From the UHGV virus genome UHGV-0212837: a stretch of DNA of 39,035 bases. One strand, given 5' to 3'. Source of the stretch: a virus. Position 1 is the first letter of the stretch, and every line of letters starts with the position of its first letter. A model generated the notes under the pieces. That model did no database searches, was not told the DNA's origin, and worked only from the letters and a program-made list of their open reading frames with translations. Positions 7,599 through 14,666 of the stretch are shown here, one piece after another. The translations under genes and the position numbers were made by a program.

Positions 7599-8058
7599 TC
7601 AACGTAAGGCGTTCCTCGATATGCTGGCGTGGTCAGAGGGAACTGATAACGGACGTCAGAAAACCAGAAATCATGGTTATGACGTCATTGTTGGCGGAGA
7701 GCTATTCACTGATTACTCCGATCACCCCCGCAAAATTGTCACGCTAAACCCAAAACTCAAATCAACTGCAGCCGGACGCTACCAGCTTCTTTCCCGTTGG
7801 TGGGATACCTACCGCAAGCAGCTTGGCCTGAAAGACTTCTCTCCGAAAAGCCAGGATGCTGTGGCACTGCAGCAGATTAAGGAACGTGGCGCTTTGCCGA
7901 TGATTGATCGCGGTGATATTCGTCAGGCAATTGACCGTTGCAGCAATATCTGGGCTTCACTGCCGGGCGCTGGTTATGGTCAGTTCGAGCATAAGGCTGA
8001 CAGCCTGATTGCAAAATTCAAAGAAGCAGGCGGAACGGTCAGAGAGATTGAGGTATGA
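7582..8058 (+). CDS. R: Endolysin R (lytic transglycosylase)
   Basis: 158 aa, near-identical to recalled lambda R. Confidence 0.95.
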
Positions 8059-8513
8059 GCAGAGTAACCGCGATTATTTCCGCTCTGGTTATCTGCATCA
8101 TCGTCTGTCTGTCATGGGCTGTTAATCATTACCGTGATAACGCCATTACCTACAAAGCCCAGCGCGACAAAAATGTCAGAGAACTGAAGCTGGCGAACGC
8201 GGCAATTACTGACATGCAGAAGCGTCAACGTGATGTAGCAGAACTCGACGCCAGATACACAAAGGAGCTTGCTGATGCTAACGCGACTATCGAAAGTCTC
8301 CGTGCTGATGTTTCTGCTGGTCGTAAGCGCCTGCAAGTCTCCGCCACCTGTGCAAAGTCAACGACCGGAGCCAGCAGCATGGGCGATGGAGAAAGCCCAA
8401 GACTTACAGCAGATGCTGAACTCAATTATTACCGTCTCCGAAGTGGAATCGACAGGATAACCTCGCAGGTTAACTACCTGCAGGAATACATCAGGACGCA
8501 ATGCCTTCGATGA
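8055..8513 (+). CDS. Rz: Spanin inner-membrane subunit Rz (mosaic: lambda-like N-terminus, divergent C-terminus)
   Basis: N-terminal TM segment; first ~75 aa lambda-like, remainder diverges. Confidence 0.85.
8269..8460 (+). CDS. Rz1: Spanin outer-membrane lipoprotein Rz1, embedded in the +1 frame of Rz
   Basis: Signal peptide with lipobox LVVSAC, proline-rich mature region; start may be an internal ATG. Confidence 0.6.
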
Positions 8514-8685
8514 TAGCGATAATTTTACTCATCATCCTTCACATCTGGCTCTGTAGACAGGGTGGTGATCACTTCTGGGGTGAATCCAGATTAAACATCT
8601 CATTGCTGATGCTTGATATTGAGCATCTGGCGCGCGGTAAGGGGCTGCGTTGAGATAAGAGCCAGTCATTCAAATACCAGGATTT

Positions 8686-8710
8686 AGCCTCGCATTTGCG
8701 GGGCTTTTTT
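8686..8710 (+). terminator. Rho-independent terminator downstream of the lysis cassette
   Basis: AGCCTCGC-ATTT-GCGGGGCT (8 bp stem, one G-U) followed by TTTTTT. Confidence 0.6.
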
Positions 8711-8857
8711 ACATCTGCAGTAAACCGCGCATCGCAGCGCGTAACAATCCCGAGTCTTTCAGAAAGCTGAGCCTGAGAACTGCCGTATATGGTGGCGACC
8801 ATCTCGGGGCGGCTTTTCTGTGCGAACAGGCTCATCTTTCTAAAAGGTAAAGACGCA

Positions 8858-9400
8858 ATGAACTACCCAACCGTTGTTAACGATATAGATTTCAGAGACC
8901 TAATTTTTGTAGCAAACAACGATCCGGTTACAGATTCTTTTATGGTGGCAAAAGCATTTGGAAAGCTGCCGAAGAACGTGGTTCGTGACATTGAACGAAC
9001 CATAGAAGCTTGCCCTCCTGAGTTTGATGCAAAGCTCAACTTTGAGCTTTGCTATAAAAACAATGAGTTACAGAATGGTAAGCCGCAAAAATTCTACCGT
9101 CTCCGCAAGGATGGGTTGATGCTTTTGGTTATGTCCTACACCAAAAAAGAAGCAATGCGTATCAAAATTGCTTACATCAACGCATTTAACTGGATGTACG
9201 CGATGCTTCAGGTTGGTCATCGTCAATTTGAAGAAGAGAGAAATGCCGTAATGCTGGAGTACATGAAAGAGAAGGATGTTGCCAGCATGTCAGGTCGCCT
9301 GCTTAATCGCTGGGGAAAAATTAAGAAGCCTCAGCTACTGGCGAGAATTGAACGCCTTGAACAGCACGGGCAAACCGTAATCCCCGGACTCACTAATTAA
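8858..9400 (+). CDS. rha: Rha-family phage regulatory protein (P22 orf201-like)
   Basis: Internal ATG at 8858 with AAGG SD; N-terminal Rha-like motif; position between lysis and packaging as in P22. Confidence 0.6.
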   Translation: MNYPTVVNDIDFRDLIFVANNDPVTDSFMVAKAFGKLPKNVVRDIERTIEACPPEFDAKLNFELCYKNNELQNGKPQKFYRLRKDGLMLLVMSYTKKEAMRIKIAYINAFNWMYAMLQVGHRQFEEERNAVMLEYMKEKDVASMSGRLLNRWGKIKKPQLLARIERLEQHGQTVIPGLTN

Positions 9401-9628
9401 CGGCAGTACAGCGAAACAACCCAAGCCAGTAAGTGGGGAAAATAACACTGGCAGCCACTGAAAGATGAACCTCCTGCCTTATGGCAAAAAAGATTCTTTG
9501 TGGTGGCGGACTGATGGAAAGACATCGGTTATTGCAGAGACCATTCAATGAGTGGTCTCGACAATGGCTTATACCCTACACGGGATAACTTAACTGATAT
9601 CCCTTTTAACGGATAAACGGAGCCAACA

Positions 9629-9871
9629 ATGGCAGAGATTATTCCCATGACTGAAGAACAGAAATTCCAGTTAGAGATTTACAAACTGGTCATGAACCAG
9701 AACGCAGCCGCAGAAGAAGCATTTCAGTTCATTGGTACTGACGAACTGAAGCTTGAGCTATTCAAAATTCACTTCCAGTCAGGCGGCGCTAATTCGGATA
9801 TCACGACCCGCACTATCGAAGCGGTGCGTAAATCGAAGGAAGCGTTAGACCTGTTCACCGCTGGAGTGTGA
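9629..9871 (+). CDS. Hypothetical protein (80 aa, P22 orf80-like position)
   Basis: ATG with GGAG SD; size and position. Confidence 0.5.
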   Translation: MAEIIPMTEEQKFQLEIYKLVMNQNAAAEEAFQFIGTDELKLELFKIHFQSGGANSDITTRTIEAVRKSKEALDLFTAGV

Positions 9872-9872
9872 T

Positions 9873-10262
9873 ATGGCTAAGGCCAAATGGCACAAACTCC
9901 CGTCGTTCACCATTCCTCTGTTTCAAAGTGCACACGTCTACCTCGCAACAACCAGAGAACAGTTTCAGCACGCTGATAAATTCCTTGGCGGCAGCGGGGA
10001 TGAGAAGCCATTCAATCTTGGGCTTGCAAGCAACTATGAAAACACTGATACGGGTGAGCGATGCTATCTGATTGGAGTATTCGATCAGCAGATCGCTACG
10101 CTCGTTCATGAGTGCGCCCACGTCTGCTTTTACGTTTGCTCTGATGTCGGCGTGACGACAAGGCCTGAAGATGCCAACGAGACGTACTGTTACATGCTGG
10201 ACAGGATGGTTAATCACTTCCTGCCATTCATTCAGGAGAAACAAGATGTATCACTGGAATAA
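9873..10262 (+). CDS. HExxH-motif protein, putative small zincin-like metallopeptidase (129 aa)
   Basis: LVHECAHV motif; ATG with GGAG SD 6 nt upstream. Confidence 0.5.
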   Translation: MAKAKWHKLPSFTIPLFQSAHVYLATTREQFQHADKFLGGSGDEKPFNLGLASNYENTDTGERCYLIGVFDQQIATLVHECAHVCFYVCSDVGVTTRPEDANETYCYMLDRMVNHFLPFIQEKQDVSLE

Positions 10263-10440
10263 TCAATCCCCTTATTGCCAATGCCAACGCTGCCCGTGCT
10301 GCGGGAAGATTGTTAACCAATTTACTGGCAACAATTTCTTCAAGACTGGTTATGGATATGGTGTTGCGGGTAGCGTTAATTGCTCTGGGGCTGCTGCTGA
10401 AACGACATCAAACACAGGCAAGCAGGAAGGAGCTAAGTAA
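10246..10440 (+). CDS. Cys-rich small protein (64 aa; CQCQRCPCCGK then Gly-rich tail)
   Basis: Internal ATG 10246 with AGGAG SD; overlaps the HExxH gene end by 17 nt. Confidence 0.4.
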   Translation: MYHWNNQSPYCQCQRCPCCGKIVNQFTGNNFFKTGYGYGVAGSVNCSGAAAETTSNTGKQEGAK

Positions 10441-10534
10441 TGGTAATCAAAGTTTGTTCAGGCTCTCAGGGCTTCGACAACCCATCCAAATTCCGCGAAG
10501 AGTGGGATAAGCAAACAGAAGGGAAATAATCAAT

Positions 10535-11023
10535 ATGGCAGCACCAAAGGGCAACCGATTTTGGGAGGCCCGCAGTAGTCATGGGCGAAATCCTAAATTC
10601 GAATCGCCTGAGGCGCTGTGGGCTGCTTGTTGTGAATACTTCGAGTGGGCTGATGATAACCCACTATGGGAGGGTAAGGTATTTTCATATCAGGGAGAAA
10701 TAATTAAGGCTAATGTCCCTAAGATGCGAGCCATGACTATTTCAGGATTGTGTACCTTCCTTGATATCACCAGGCAAACATGGGGAACCTTCCGGTCAAT
10801 GGAAGGTTTTTCTGACGTCACATCACGAGCGGAAGACATCATCTACGACCAGAAATTCTCTGGCGCAGCCGCTGACCTTCTCAACGCTAACATCATCGCC
10901 CGTGATTTGGGCCTCAAAGAGCAGTCGCAAGTTGAAGACGTGACACCTGATAAGGGAGATCGCGATAAGCGGCGCTCTCGTATCAAGGAGCTATTCAACC
11001 GTGGAACTGGACGCGATTCTTGA
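10535..11023 (+). CDS. Terminase small subunit (P22 gp3-like)
   Basis: 162 aa, N-terminus [22 protein letters not shown] typical of P22-type small terminase; precedes large terminase. Confidence 0.8.
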
Positions 11024-12500
11024 TAACCTGAGCGATGAAGAGCAAATCGAATTGCTCGAGCTACTCGAAGAAGAAGAGAACTACCGGAACACACACCTGC
11101 TATATGAATTTACGCCATATAGCAAACAGCGTGAGTTCATCGACGCCGGGCATGACTATCCAGAGCGCTGTTTTATGGCTGGTAACCAGCTTGGTAAGTC
11201 ATTTACTGGTGCTGCTGAAGTCGCGTTTCACCTTACCGGGCGTTATCCGGGCACAAAAGGCTATCCTGCTGATGGTAAATATGGCGGGGAGTGGAAAGGT
11301 AAGCGTTTCTATGAGCCTGTTGTCTTCTGGATTGGTGGCGAGACAAACGAGACTGTAACCAAAACGACTCAACGCATCCTGTGCGGTCGTATCGAAGAGA
11401 ATGATGAGCCTGGCTACGGTTCCATACCGAAAGAAGACATTATTAGCTGGAAGAAGTCTCCTTTCTTTCCGAACCTTGTTGATCATCTTCTGGTTAAGCA
11501 TCACACGGCTGATGGCGTTGAAGATGGCATTTCAATCTGCTACTTCAAACCATACTCGCAAGGCCGTGCTCGCTGGCAGGGTGACACAATCCACGGCGTG
11601 TGGTTTGACGAAGAACCACCATACAGCATTTATGGCGAAGGTCTTACCCGTACCAACAAATACGGGCAATTCTCAATTCTGACGTTTACCCCGCTGATGG
11701 GGATGTCTGACGTTGTTACCAAATTCCTGAAGAATCCAAGCAAGTCGCAGAAAGTGGTCAACATGACCATCTACGACGCTGAGCACTACACAGACGAACA
11801 GAAAGAGCAAATCATCGCATCTTATCCTGAGCATGAGAGAGAGGCGCGTTCTCGCGGTATTCCTACGATGGGTAGCGGTCGAATCTTCCAGATACCGGAA
11901 GAGACGATTAAGTGTCAGCCGTTCGAGTGTCCTGATCACTTCTACGTAATTGGCGGGATGGATTTTGGATGGGATCACCCTCAGGCGCAGGTTCAGCTTT
12001 GGTGGGATAAGGACGCAGACACAATCTACGTTTCACGCGTGTGGAAGGCGAAAGAAAAAACAGCCGTTCAGGCGTGGGGAGCCGTTAAATCATGGGCGCA
12101 TAAAGTGCCAACCGCATGGCCTCATGACGGAAACCAGCATGAGAAGGGCGGCGGTGAGCAGCTCAAAGGGCAGTATGCCGACGCTGGTTTTATGATGTTG
12201 CAGGAGCATGCGACATGGCCTGATGGCGGTAATGCTGTTGAGCCTGGAATCACTGAATTGCGCGACATGATGCTTGATGGTCGCTTCAAAGTATTCAACA
12301 CCTGTGAGCCATTCTTTGAGGAGTTCCGCCTCTATCACCGTGATGAAAACGGGAAGATCGTCAAGCTTAACGACGACGTGCTATCAGCCGTTCGCTATGC
12401 ATACATGATGCGCCGCTTCGCCAAAATGATGCGCGACATCAAAAAACCAAAAGAGAAAAAGATACCAGCCCCAATCAGGCCCATCGCACGGAGAAATTAA
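11001..12500 (+). CDS. Terminase large subunit (P22 gp2-like)
   Basis: 499 aa; Walker A-like GNQLGKS; GTG start at 11001 overlapping small terminase end (start uncertain). Confidence 0.9.
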
Positions 12501-14666
12501 ATGGCCGACGAAAACAGACTCAATTCCATTCTGTGTAAGTTTGACGCGGACTGGATGGCGAGCGATGAAGCCAGAACCGAGGCGACAAATGACCTGTATT
12601 TTAGCCGAGTGTCGCAATGGGATGACTGGCTATCAAACTACACGACCCTGCAATATCGCGGACAATTCGATGTTGTTCGCCCGGTGGTCAGGAAACTGGT
12701 CGCAGAGATGCGCCGGAACCCTATCGACGTTCTCTTCCGACCCAAAGACGGCGCTAATCCTGATGCAGCCGATGTGTTGATGGGAATGTATCGTACTGAT
12801 ATGCGCCATAATACGGCAAAAATTGCCGTTAACGTTGGCGTTCGTGAGCAGATAGAGTCCGGCGTTGGTGCATGGCGTCTGGTCACGCAGTACGAAGACA
12901 ACGATCCAACAAGCAACAATCAGGTAATTCGACGCCTGCCAATTCATGAAGCCTGCTCACACGTCATATGGGACGCCAACAGCAAGCAGATGGATAAGAG
13001 CGATGCTAAGCACTGCACGGTGATTAACGCCTTGTCGCGCAATGGCTGGAAAGAGTTTGCAGAGGATTACGGTATTGATCCTGACACCCTGCCATCTTTC
13101 CAGAATCCGAACGACACATGGCTGTTTCCGTGGGTATCGAATGATGTCGTCTACGTCGCTGAGTATTACGAGGTCGAAGAGAAGAAGGAGAAGGTCTTCA
13201 TCTACCGCGACCCGCTGACAGGTGATCCGGTCAGCTATTACCAGCAGGATATCAAAGACGTCATCGACGACCTGGCTAATCGTGGATTCATTAAGGTAGC
13301 AGAGCGCAAGGTGAAGCGTCGGCGTGTGTATAAGTCGATCATCACCTGCACGCAGATACTGAAAGACCGCGAGAAGATAGCCGGAGAGCATATTCCAATC
13401 GTTCCAGTGTATGGTGAATGGTCATTCGCTGGTGACAAGGAGTGCTACGAAGGAGTGGTAAGGCTGACGAAAGACGGTCAACGCCTTCGTAACATGATCA
13501 TGTCATTCAACGCCGATATTGTTGCTCGTTCACCGAAGAAGAAACCGACCTTCTTCCCTGAGCAAATCGAAGGCTACGAATACATGTACGGTGGAAATGA
13601 TGACTATCCGTACTATCTGCAGAACAGGACCGATGAAAACGGTAACGACCTGCCGATTGGTCCAATCTCCTACATGGAAAACCCTGAAGTGCCGCAAGCC
13701 AACGCTTATATGCTTGAGGCTGCCACCAACGCAGTGAAAGAGGTGGCTAGTCTTGGTGTGGATGCGCAGGCAGCAAACTCTCAGGTCGCTTTCGATACCG
13801 TCAATCAACTGAACATGCGGGCAGACCTTGAGACATACGTGTTTCAGGATAACCTGGCTACCGCAATGCGACGTGATGGCGAGATTTATGCCTCAATGGT
13901 CAACGATATTTATGACGTTCCTCGTCATGTAACGCTGACACTTGAAGATGGAAGCGAGAAAGACGTTCAACTCTATGCGCAAGTTGTCGATTACCAGTCC
14001 GGCAATGTGGTCACACTCAACGACATTCGTGGTCGCTATGAGTGCTATACAGACGTTGGACCATCCTTCCAGAGTATGAAGGAACAGAACCGCGCAGAGA
14101 TTCAGGAGTTACTCACCAAGGTTCCGCAAGGTACTCCAGAGTTCCAGATGCTGATGCTGCAATACTTCACGCTCCTTGACGGTAAAGGCGTCGAGATGAT
14201 GCGAGAGTACGCGAACAAGCAACTGGTGATGATGGGGCTGAAGAAACCAGAAACACCTGAAGAGATGGAGATGGTACAACAGGCACAACAACAGCCGCAG
14301 CAGCCATCAGCAGAGCAAATTCAGGCGCAGGGTATCCTTCTGCAAGGTCAGGCTGAATTGCTCAAGGCAGAGAACCAACAGGCACAGATTCAGGTTGAAG
14401 CCGCCAAGGTTGAAGCCCAAAACCAACTCAACGCCGCGAAGATTGCAGAAATCTTCAACAATATGGACCTCGACAAGCAGGCAGAACTGCGTGAGTACCT
14501 CAAGCTAGTAGGTCAATTCCAGCAACAGCGCAGCAAAGATGCTCGTGCTAACGCTGAGCTGCTTCTTAAAGATGCAGACCAGACTCATTCACAACGCATG
14601 GATTTCGCGAATCTTATGCGTCAAGTTCAAATCCCCTCCGGCGGAGTAGCCGAGACACCTCAATAA
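12501..14666 (+). CDS. Portal protein (P22 gp1-like)
   Basis: 721 aa, strongly similar to recalled P22 portal including C-terminal Q-rich barrel. Confidence 0.95.

Follow-up and report, generated by a model that had tools for sequence, protein, structure and literature searches.

A minimal zincin-like protein of the Orf129 family and an overlapping Cys-rich mini-gene upstream of the terminase genes of a P22-like phage of Escherichia coli

Introduction

The core of the zincin-like metallopeptidases (MPTases) comprises a three-stranded sheet, an N-terminal helix, a helix bearing the HExxH motif, and a helix supplying a Glu (Iyer et al., 2017, PMC5512222). Here, we consider ORF129, a 129-amino acid (aa) protein with such a motif encoded by UHGV virus genome UHGV-0212837, a stretch of 39,035 nucleotides (nt; hereafter the window) that represents the nearly complete genome of a P22-like (Lederbergvirus-type) E. 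coli phage or prophage, along with pep64, a 64-aa Cys-rich protein whose gene overlaps that of ORF129. The closest described relatives of ORF129 are the Orf129 proteins of phages L and ST64T, which are of equal length, about 60% identical to it over 124 of the 129 residues, share the motifs HECAH...NETYCY, and are likewise encoded immediately past orf80/orf-118 and ahead of the terminase genes; the next gene in those phages is that for the capsid decoration protein Dec (Orf-134), whereas here it is pep64, followed by a 29-aa micro-open reading frame (ORF), pep29. The homologs from the L/ST64T-type phages are all annotated as hypothetical proteins, phrog_1365, the family of which ORF129 is a member, is without an assigned function, and a literature search recovered no functional study of Orf129, phrog_1365, DUF2560 (the family of the upstream orf80), or phage zincin anti-defense. 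ORF129 is an already catalogued, functionally unstudied phage ORF. We favor, with a probability of roughly 0.6, the explanation that it is an accessory zinc MPTase of the late operon and that pep64 is an unrelated, translationally coupled moron.

Two other sets of proteins are comparable in part. The MPTase domains of polyvalent proteins and the thermolysin-type gluzincins display an HExxH helix, a Glu ligand on the next helix, and a three-stranded sheet with a backing helix in front, as predicted for ORF129, and one fold match of ORF129 in the BFVD viral model library is labeled 'PolyVal metallopeptidase'; unlike those domains, ORF129 is a stand-alone protein of 129 aa and not a part of a multidomain injected protein. 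The Listeria metzincin with its TIMP-like inhibitor (PMC8235301) combines, similarly, a metalloprotease of phage origin with a small partner protein encoded beside it. That pair is described as secreted or as lipoprotein, whereas ORF129 and pep64 have no signal sequences, and the pairing of the latter two is not conserved beyond one clade. The first-pass annotation of this locus had described a zincin-like protein overlapping a Cys-rich, Gly-rich peptide, and its coordinates, the LVHECAHV motif, the downstream acidic residue, the Cys cluster, the Gly-rich tail, the 17-nt overlap, and both Shine-Dalgarno (SD) sequences were accurate to the base.

Results

A predicted gluzincin-type active site and zincin core in ORF129

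An alignment of 67 homologs that are 23-49% identical to ORF129 contains only five invariant columns, namely G50, H79, E80, H83, and E103, with the complete HExxH signature bearing out the first-pass proposal of a zincin-like protein. LVHECAHV corresponds to residues 77-84, and E103 (codon 10179-10181) lies 20 residues after H83, next to N102, which is invariant in the enterobacterial subset. The other acidic residue downstream of the motif, D91, along with the Cys residues of ORF129, is conserved in that subset and not family-wide. An HExxH motif with a Glu 20 residues past the second His, itself preceded by an Asn, recalls the HExxH...NExxSD signature of thermolysin (MEROPS clan MA). This pattern of conservation supports a predicted zincin-type (gluzincin) metal site under strong selection formed by H79, E80, H83, and E103. 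In the mechanism that we propose, ORF129 would be a soluble, stand-alone, minimal zinc MPTase of the gluzincin-type zincin superfamily, with Zn2+ held by H79, H83, and E103 and, going by the motif, E80 acting as the general base.

The AlphaFold2 (AF2) model of ORF129, built from a 30-sequence alignment (predicted local distance difference test score [pLDDT] 83; predicted template modeling score [pTM] 0.79), has strands at residues 11-13, 20-25, 50-56, and 63-69 and helices at residues 28-37, 74-91 (with the HExxH motif), and 103-128 (beginning at E103). The predicted topology supports an equivalence to the minimal zincin core of Iyer et al., 2017 (PMC5512222). Searches of BFVD with this model recovered 31 fold matches at E<=1e-3, almost all of which are uncharacterized phage proteins of 100-160 aa, including those of crAss-like, N4-like, Ralstonia, and Acinetobacter phages; a few matches carry the automatic labels SprT-like, PolyVal metallopeptidase, metalloprotease, or IrrE, with E-values from 3e-5 to 2e-3. 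Two results weigh against the zincin assignment, viz., that Foldseek recovered no match to the model in the PDB at E<=1e-3, and that no curated peptidase profile reaches its threshold for ORF129, which leaves no significant match in sequence or structure to the curated or solved zincins. The metalloprotease fold anticipated in the first-pass annotation accordingly stands as a core topology predicted by AF2 and did not gain a counterpart among solved structures. A sequence search of the solved structures with two of our family profiles (A1 and A3) yielded motif-level or chance matches only (myroilysin, E=0.1; dihydrofolate reductase, E=0.9), which we set aside.

The families that had been put forward for profile comparison, namely SprT, ImmA/IrrE, and WLM, do not claim ORF129. 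The SprT-like profile (PF10263) aligns with residues 73-91 only and, at 12.7 bits (E=0.12), falls short of its cut-off of 25.6; it is the only Pfam family with recurrent weak matches, found in 8/67 relatives (best E=4e-4), and one ORF129 homolog bears the automatic database name 'SprT-like family protein'. Peptidase_M78 (PF06114) has no match in ORF129 at E<=1 and one among the 67 relatives (E=0.099), and WLM (PF08325) matches neither ORF129 at E<=1 nor any of the 67 relatives at E<=0.1. In the SprT-type motif, the third ligand is a His shortly past the HExxH (HExxHx5H). ORF129 resembles the SprT-like/Wss1/Spartan proteins in its small size and HExxH helix; however, its predicted third ligand is the Glu at +20 and not a His at +6, where the enterobacterial proteins have C89 and the wider family Leu or Ile, and the Glu helix is its last element, with no zinc ribbon following at the C-terminus. 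With ImmA/IrrE/CapP (M78), it shares an HExxH with a downstream Glu and the character of a small soluble protease of mobile elements, but IrrE and ImmA are far larger, and the gene for ORF129 is part of the late operon, where its neighbors are orf80 and the terminase genes, with no XRE/ImmR-type repressor gene adjacent. The late-operon position, the missing repressor, and the absence of an M78 match speak against the anti-repressor-type protease suggested in the first-pass annotation. Because the active-site signature and the topology match while the curated profiles stay below threshold, we file ORF129 at the superfamily level, i.e., as a member of the zincin superfamily with a robust metalloprotease signature, and not of SprT, WLM, or ImmA/IrrE.

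The sole NCBIfam signal is to TIGR04267, the alpha-ketoglutarate (aKG)-HExxH-type peptide beta-hydroxylases, with 18 bits against a cut-off of 40 (E=0.002; profile positions 65-94 of 177); 8/67 relatives also match, none better than E=0.002. This signal and the want of a significant structural match to solved peptidases could be taken to mean that the HExxH...E metal serves another chemistry, e.g., that of an aKG/Fe HExxH-type hydroxylase acting on the neighboring peptide, or that ORF129 is a pseudo-enzyme. Such a departure from peptidase activity appears very unlikely to us, given that the TIGR04267 match spans only the motif region (residues 75-104), that the invariant residues are those expected of a gluzincin catalytic base and three ligands with the thermolysin-like 20-residue spacing, and that the predicted topology, a beta-sheet with two helices, is the one found in zincins. 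Defense-system profiles from PADLOC gave no match at E<=1 for ORF129, pep64, or pep29.

A large phage family with a recurrent position near the terminase genes

Searches of 50,697 phage records with tblastn recovered ORF129 homologs in 92 records, the top matches, all at about 60% identity over 124/129 residues, being ST64T Orf-129, phage L Orf129, ST104 ORF47, SE1 orf49, epsilon34 gp70, and g341c gp66. The homologs from ST64T, L, ST104, epsilon34, and g341c occupy the same position between orf80 and gene 3; the first-pass statement that the locus has no counterpart in the P22 layout holds for P22 itself, which has the unrelated orf59c in this slot, but not for these phages. When 1.84 billion representative proteins were searched exhaustively with a family profile, 834 clusters (at 50% identity) were detected at E<=1e-3, nearly all comprising single-domain proteins of 100-160 aa. 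All 67 sampled relatives match phrog_1365, whose members are found in P22-like, lambda-like (mEp), N4-like, and other phages.

Several members are encoded in other settings. P22 has an intact, unannotated paralog with 35% identity to ORF129 (P22-pbi AF527608.1, about 13849-14226, plus strand; equivalent to L013 2489-2866), which keeps the HECAH and NETYCY motifs and lies in the immI region between sieA and orf59a/mnt. Such immI-type zincin copies are common in Salmonella P22-like phages, some of which carry both copies; the window itself has no second copy of either ORF129 or pep64. The homologs of the mEp021-group siphophages (mEp044 gp72, equivalent to L011 3001-3585; P0116-P0120) are 180-194 aa long, are encoded between the lysis and terminase genes, and show a fused C-terminal extension that is first acidic and then Lys-rich. 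In a distant phage with an SU10-type portal (L037 4001-4366), the gene for a 121-aa member extends by 4 nt into the 5' end of the large terminase gene (TerL) and occupies the place usually expected for the small terminase gene. In the N4-like phage phCDa, the gene for the family member is the first of a group of small ORFs that diverges from the terminase cluster.

Genome comparisons indicate that ORF129 is a dispensable accessory gene, absent at this site from P22 (with orf59c instead) and from phage APC_JM3.2, and scarce in E. coli prophages: of 5,426 complete E. coli genomes, 35 match the region 9860-10540 at least in part, and 16 contain prophages that are 98-99.6% identical to it. To assess its neighborhoods, we used 80 IMG/VR loci with enterobacterial zincin homologs (subset A2), in which orf80 is upstream of the zincin in 48 and TerL is 0.43-1.35 kb downstream of it in 62. 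This persistent place just upstream of the terminase and the TerL overlap in the distant phage both count against the explanation that we favor, in that they could suggest a role linked to packaging or assembly; the position of the zincin gene of the mEp siphophages between those for lysis and the terminase, the fused Lys-rich tail of the mEp-group homologs, and the recurrent weak SprT-like similarity point the same way. A protease of this kind would remove DNA-bound or assembly-blocking proteins in an SprT/Spartan-like manner, with the Cys- or Lys-rich peptides encoded alongside providing a nucleic-acid- or zinc-binding module in trans. We consider such a function unlikely: the zincin is dispensable in P22-like phages with the same terminase and head genes, the His and zinc ribbon that define SprT are absent from ORF129, and no zinc-ribbon profile matches pep64. 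Moreover, since the P22 paralog resides in immI, the N4-like member lies outside the terminase operon, and the lysis-terminase junction is a general accessory hotspot (harboring rha, KilA-N, gp49, DUF2560, and dec), a packaging-independent role is favored on comparative grounds. Most likely, ORF129 would cleave one or a few cytoplasmic proteins during infection, in the course of host takeover or counter-defense.

pep64 is probably a genuine, clade-restricted gene

The pep64 ORF is in the +1 frame relative to ORF129 and overlaps it by exactly 17 nt, which implies that its translation may be coupled to that of ORF129. Together with the copy in the window, 22 others, drawn from E. coli genomes, IMG/VR, Logan, and a genome of Atlantibacter, make up a set of 23 that represents 17 distinct sequences. 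The frame is intact in 16 of the 17, including copies with 64% aa identity and an in-frame 6-nt indel; the frameshifted copy (L004) comes from a locus that has lost ORF129. In codons 8-28, a diverged copy (L007) differs from the window at five sites, each a synonymous third-position change; the in-frame 6-nt indel lies in the tail. Against three diverged copies, the ratio of nonsynonymous to synonymous polymorphism (pN/pS) is 0.18-0.46 in the frame of pep64, whereas the two alternative frames give values of at least 0.7, most of them >1. The invariant core, M-x-H-x-N-N-x-x-P-Y-C-Q-C-Q-R-C-P-C-C-G-K-I-V-N-Q-F-T-G-N, contains a cluster of the form C11-x-C13-x2-C16-x-C18-C19, with all five Cys residues invariant in every intact copy and the flanking P17 replaced by Q in one variant (P0122); a Gly/Ser/Thr/Ala-rich tail of variable, low-complexity sequence follows.

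The known range of pep64 is one narrow clade of enterobacterial prophages with at least 80% nt identity (E. coli and one Atlantibacter). A search of 5.8 billion proteins recovered it in only six clusters, four of which are >95% identical or frameshifted/truncated, whereas P0125 is 64% identical and shows the arrangement DUF2560, 128-aa zincin, 63-aa ORF (14-nt overlap), and 30-aa ORF, with the terminase genes further downstream. pep64 has no Pfam, PHROG, NCBIfam, or PADLOC match; its identification as a zinc ribbon, an HNH domain, a lantibiotic, or a member of another known peptide family was rejected for want of any profile match. The AF2 model, from four sequences, has a pLDDT of 40 and no confident structure. 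We also discarded an ORF129-pep64 frameshift fusion, as pep64 has its own strong SD and ATG, with no slippery site evident by eye.

That pep64, and with it pep29, might not be a gene at all, the 272-nt stretch between ORF129 and gene 3 being non-coding spacer, regulatory, or recombination-linker sequence, would fit the lack of annotation in most genomes by the Prokaryotic Genome Annotation Pipeline (PGAP), the absence of family matches, the failure of tblastn to detect pep64 in the 50,697 phage records, and the frameshifted or truncated protein entries (P0123, P0124, and P0126). This is nonetheless distinctly improbable in light of the predominance of intact variants, the in-frame constraint seen in pN/pS, and the strong, conserved SD; further, a search of Rfam with the segment 10225-10540 gave no match, and the RNA fold of this segment does not exceed those of shuffled sequences in stability (z=-0.44). 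The purifying selection in frame, the conserved SD, and a single PGAP call (WP_130553454.1, from a genome in which ORF129 is truncated) indicate that pep64 is probably a real, expressed gene. It is reasonable to view its five-Cys knuckle as a potential small metal-binding site.

The zincin-terminase slot and the relationship of pep64 to ORF129

In the 80 IMG/VR loci, pep64 follows the zincin in 14 and other genes in 66; these alternative tenants include a Lys-rich peptide of 44-63 aa, Dec or Dec-like proteins, DUF2560, a 212-aa protein with the PF18894 'phage metallopeptidase' domain, and the small terminase directly. Zincins that are 82-84% identical to ORF129 (Klebsiella aerogenes and Citrobacter) are followed by the Lys-rich peptide and not by pep64, and the approximately 60% identical ones of L and ST64T are followed by Dec, which we infer from the phage L literature to be the product of ST64T Orf-134. 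Neither ST64T Orf-134 (Dec) nor P22 orf59c shows similarity to pep64 or the spacer, and we accordingly dropped the idea that pep64 is a decayed remnant of another slot gene.

The Lys-rich peptides, which have no Pfam match, overlap the 3' end of the zincin gene by 10-19 nt in prophages of Klebsiella and other enterobacteria (L030 2874-3014; L053, L069, L082, L083, L086, L087, and L090). In another group of loci (L051, L063, L064, L068, and L070-L074), the zincin precedes the 'putative phage metallopeptidase' (PF18894, E=5e-43; 212 aa), which has an HELYH motif and starts 4 nt past the zincin stop in the L051-type arrangement, such that two unrelated HExxH proteins are encoded in tandem.

The slot ends in a recurrent boundary. 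The 14-mer GGAGCTAAGTAATG is present after unrelated genes in 38 of 120 fetched loci, where it follows ST64T Orf-129, pep64, Lys-rich peptides, and a 62-aa ORF (e.g., L002 2379-2392 and L030 3003-3016); in ST64T, GGAGCCAAGTAATG is found between Orf-129 and dec. Such a recurrence is typical of the mosaic junctions of lambdoid phages, and GGAGCTAAGTAATG appears to be a conserved junction of mosaicism or translational coupling. The varied slot genes and this shared boundary therefore mark the slot as a recombination-driven accessory position, of which pep64 is one tenant. pep29 is intact in 17/17 variants, with the variable sites of its core distributed over the codon positions as 2/0/9, and in phage APC_JM3.2 a 23-aa version is the only ORF separating orf80 from gene 3. 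Because it also precedes Sf6-type small terminases, pep29 tracks the terminase-proximal position and not the zincin, and could serve terminase translation as an upstream or leader ORF.

The recurrence of overlapping small ORFs 3' of zincin homologs, such as those for the Lys-rich peptides, is a further point against the favored explanation, as it fits a functional tie between the zincin and a small partner. In such a module, pep64 would be a dedicated partner of the zincin, viz., a cysteine-switch inhibitor acting in trans, a zinc-donating cofactor, a substrate, or a pro-peptide. The 17-nt overlap and the SD inside ORF129 would imply coupled and roughly stoichiometric synthesis, every pep64 copy found is directly after ORF129 or its remnant, the only frameshifted copy being that in a locus that has lost ORF129, and a cysteine switch is reported for Wss1-type minigluzincins (PMC4559962). 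Set against this are the 6 protein clusters of pep64 as opposed to the 834 of the zincin, the unrelated genes that follow even close homologs of ORF129, and an intact pep64 in a locus with a 5'-truncated ORF129 (L006), while the linkage within a single clade is explained by common descent and the AF2 model of pep64 is uninformative. A dedicated partnership is improbable on these grounds, and the first-pass suggestion of a protease with its substrate loses ground with it. Likewise, when we considered an enzyme-precursor module resembling those for ribosomally synthesized and post-translationally modified peptides, the co-occurrence of enzyme and peptide proved not to be conserved across the zincin family, with 66/80 loci bearing other slot genes.

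A broader version of the partnership posits a two-component unit, in which the zincin is combined with an exchangeable second part, i.e., pep64, the Lys-rich peptide, or the fused basic tail of the mEp homologs. The peptide would then target, activate, or latch the protease, either as a cysteine switch acting in trans on the zinc or through SprT/Spartan-like tethering to nucleic acids. We regard this as a long shot; if true, minimal phage proteases that are split in two and act at the lysis-packaging transition or against host defense would form a new class. Under the explanation that we favor, ORF129 with an unrelated moron, pep64 would instead be a separate small gene of a narrow lineage, probably coding for a metal-binding five-Cys knuckle with a disordered tail, which was inserted in the hypervariable zincin-terminase slot, would be translated by coupling to ORF129, and would be neither an obligate partner nor a substrate of the protease. 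Of the options raised in the first-pass annotation, a moron fits best, the genes being dispensable and the slot hypervariable.

Gene context and features of the locus

The genes of the window are ordered as replication and nin genes, Q, holin/endolysin/Rz (to 8513), rha (8789-9400), orf80, and ORF129, followed, after pep64 and pep29, by the small terminase gp3, the large terminase (11001-12500), the portal, and the rest (Table 1). Thus, orf80 intervenes between ORF129 and rha, which the first-pass annotation had placed side by side. orf80 is 97-98% identical at the nt level to hkbM of CUS-3 and HK620 and to gene 67 of Sf6. All genes from the holin to the portal have the same orientation, and no promoter-like site was found on the plus strand within 8000-11100. 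The junctions are coupled: the ATG of ORF129 lies 1 nt past the orf80 stop (TGA, 9869-9871), ORF129 and pep64 overlap, and pep64 and pep29 share a TAATG. We infer that the region belongs to the Q-dependent late operon and would be expressed with the lysis and head genes.

A strong intrinsic-terminator-like hairpin is present in the Rz-rha gap (8686-8705, plus strand; eight pairs, six of them GC, followed by a T run). It is the only strong hairpin of this type on the plus strand of the region, is located upstream of ORF129, and, being inside the late operon, is presumably read through by Q-modified polymerase. A 50-aa ORF (8501-8653, plus strand) overlaps the end of Rz; its counterpart in related prophages is a PGAP hypothetical protein (WP_016262208.1 in E. 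coli N9). A 129-aa antisense ORF (9855-10244, minus strand) was taken to be a shadow of ORF129.

Table 1. Features of the orf80-gene 3 interval in the window.
Feature	Position	Strand	Evidence
orf80 (DUF2560), upstream neighbor of ORF129	9629..9871	+	Pfam PF10834, E=1e-43
SD (GGAG) of ORF129, 6 nt 5' of ATG	9863..9866	+	Read in sequence
ORF129, 129-aa minimal zincin-like (gluzincin-type) protein, phrog_1365 member	9873..10262	+	phrog_1365, E=2.6e-37, residues 1-125
HECAH motif (H79, E80, H83), predicted helix 74-91	10107..10121	+	Invariant in 31 close and 67 distant homologs
N102-E103, E103 predicted third zinc ligand, at start of helix 103-128	10176..10181	+	E103 invariant in 67/67
SD (AGGAG) of pep64, 7 nt 5' of ATG, within ORF129 3' end	10234..10238	+	Identical in divergent L007, L027, L028
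pep64, 64-aa Cys-rich small protein, conserved core 1-29 and variable Gly/Ser/Thr tail	10246..10440	+	
Cys cluster C-Q-C-Q-R-C-P-C-C with CPxCG-type knuckle (C16-P-C-C19-G20)	10276..10302	+	Cys invariant in intact copies
Mosaic junction GGAGCTAAGTAATG, C-terminal ...GAK and stop of upstream gene, SD and ATG of next	10429..10442	+	
pep29, 29-aa micro-ORF, TAATG overlap with pep64, ends 5 nt before gene 3 ATG	10440..10529	+	
Small terminase subunit (P22 gp3 type), downstream neighbor	10535..11023	+	PF16677, E=8e-31; phrog_606

Discussion

The locus is made up of an ordinary accessory gene and a probably real, usually unannotated, clade-restricted mini-gene, and nothing in it indicates a new kind of system. 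The window adds one more member to phrog_1365 and a clade-restricted Cys-rich mini-protein, with no change to any current concept. For annotation, the gain is that 'zincin-like metallopeptidase, Orf129 family' can replace 'hypothetical protein', along with the recognition of two small ORFs that pipelines usually miss. For the family, phrog_1365 emerges as a large assemblage (834 clusters) with a perfectly conserved putative metalloprotease active site but no assigned function. Host takeover or counter-defense would be a plausible task for a small, stand-alone phage protease produced alongside the lysis and packaging proteins, and finding the substrate of ORF129 would be useful for that reason.

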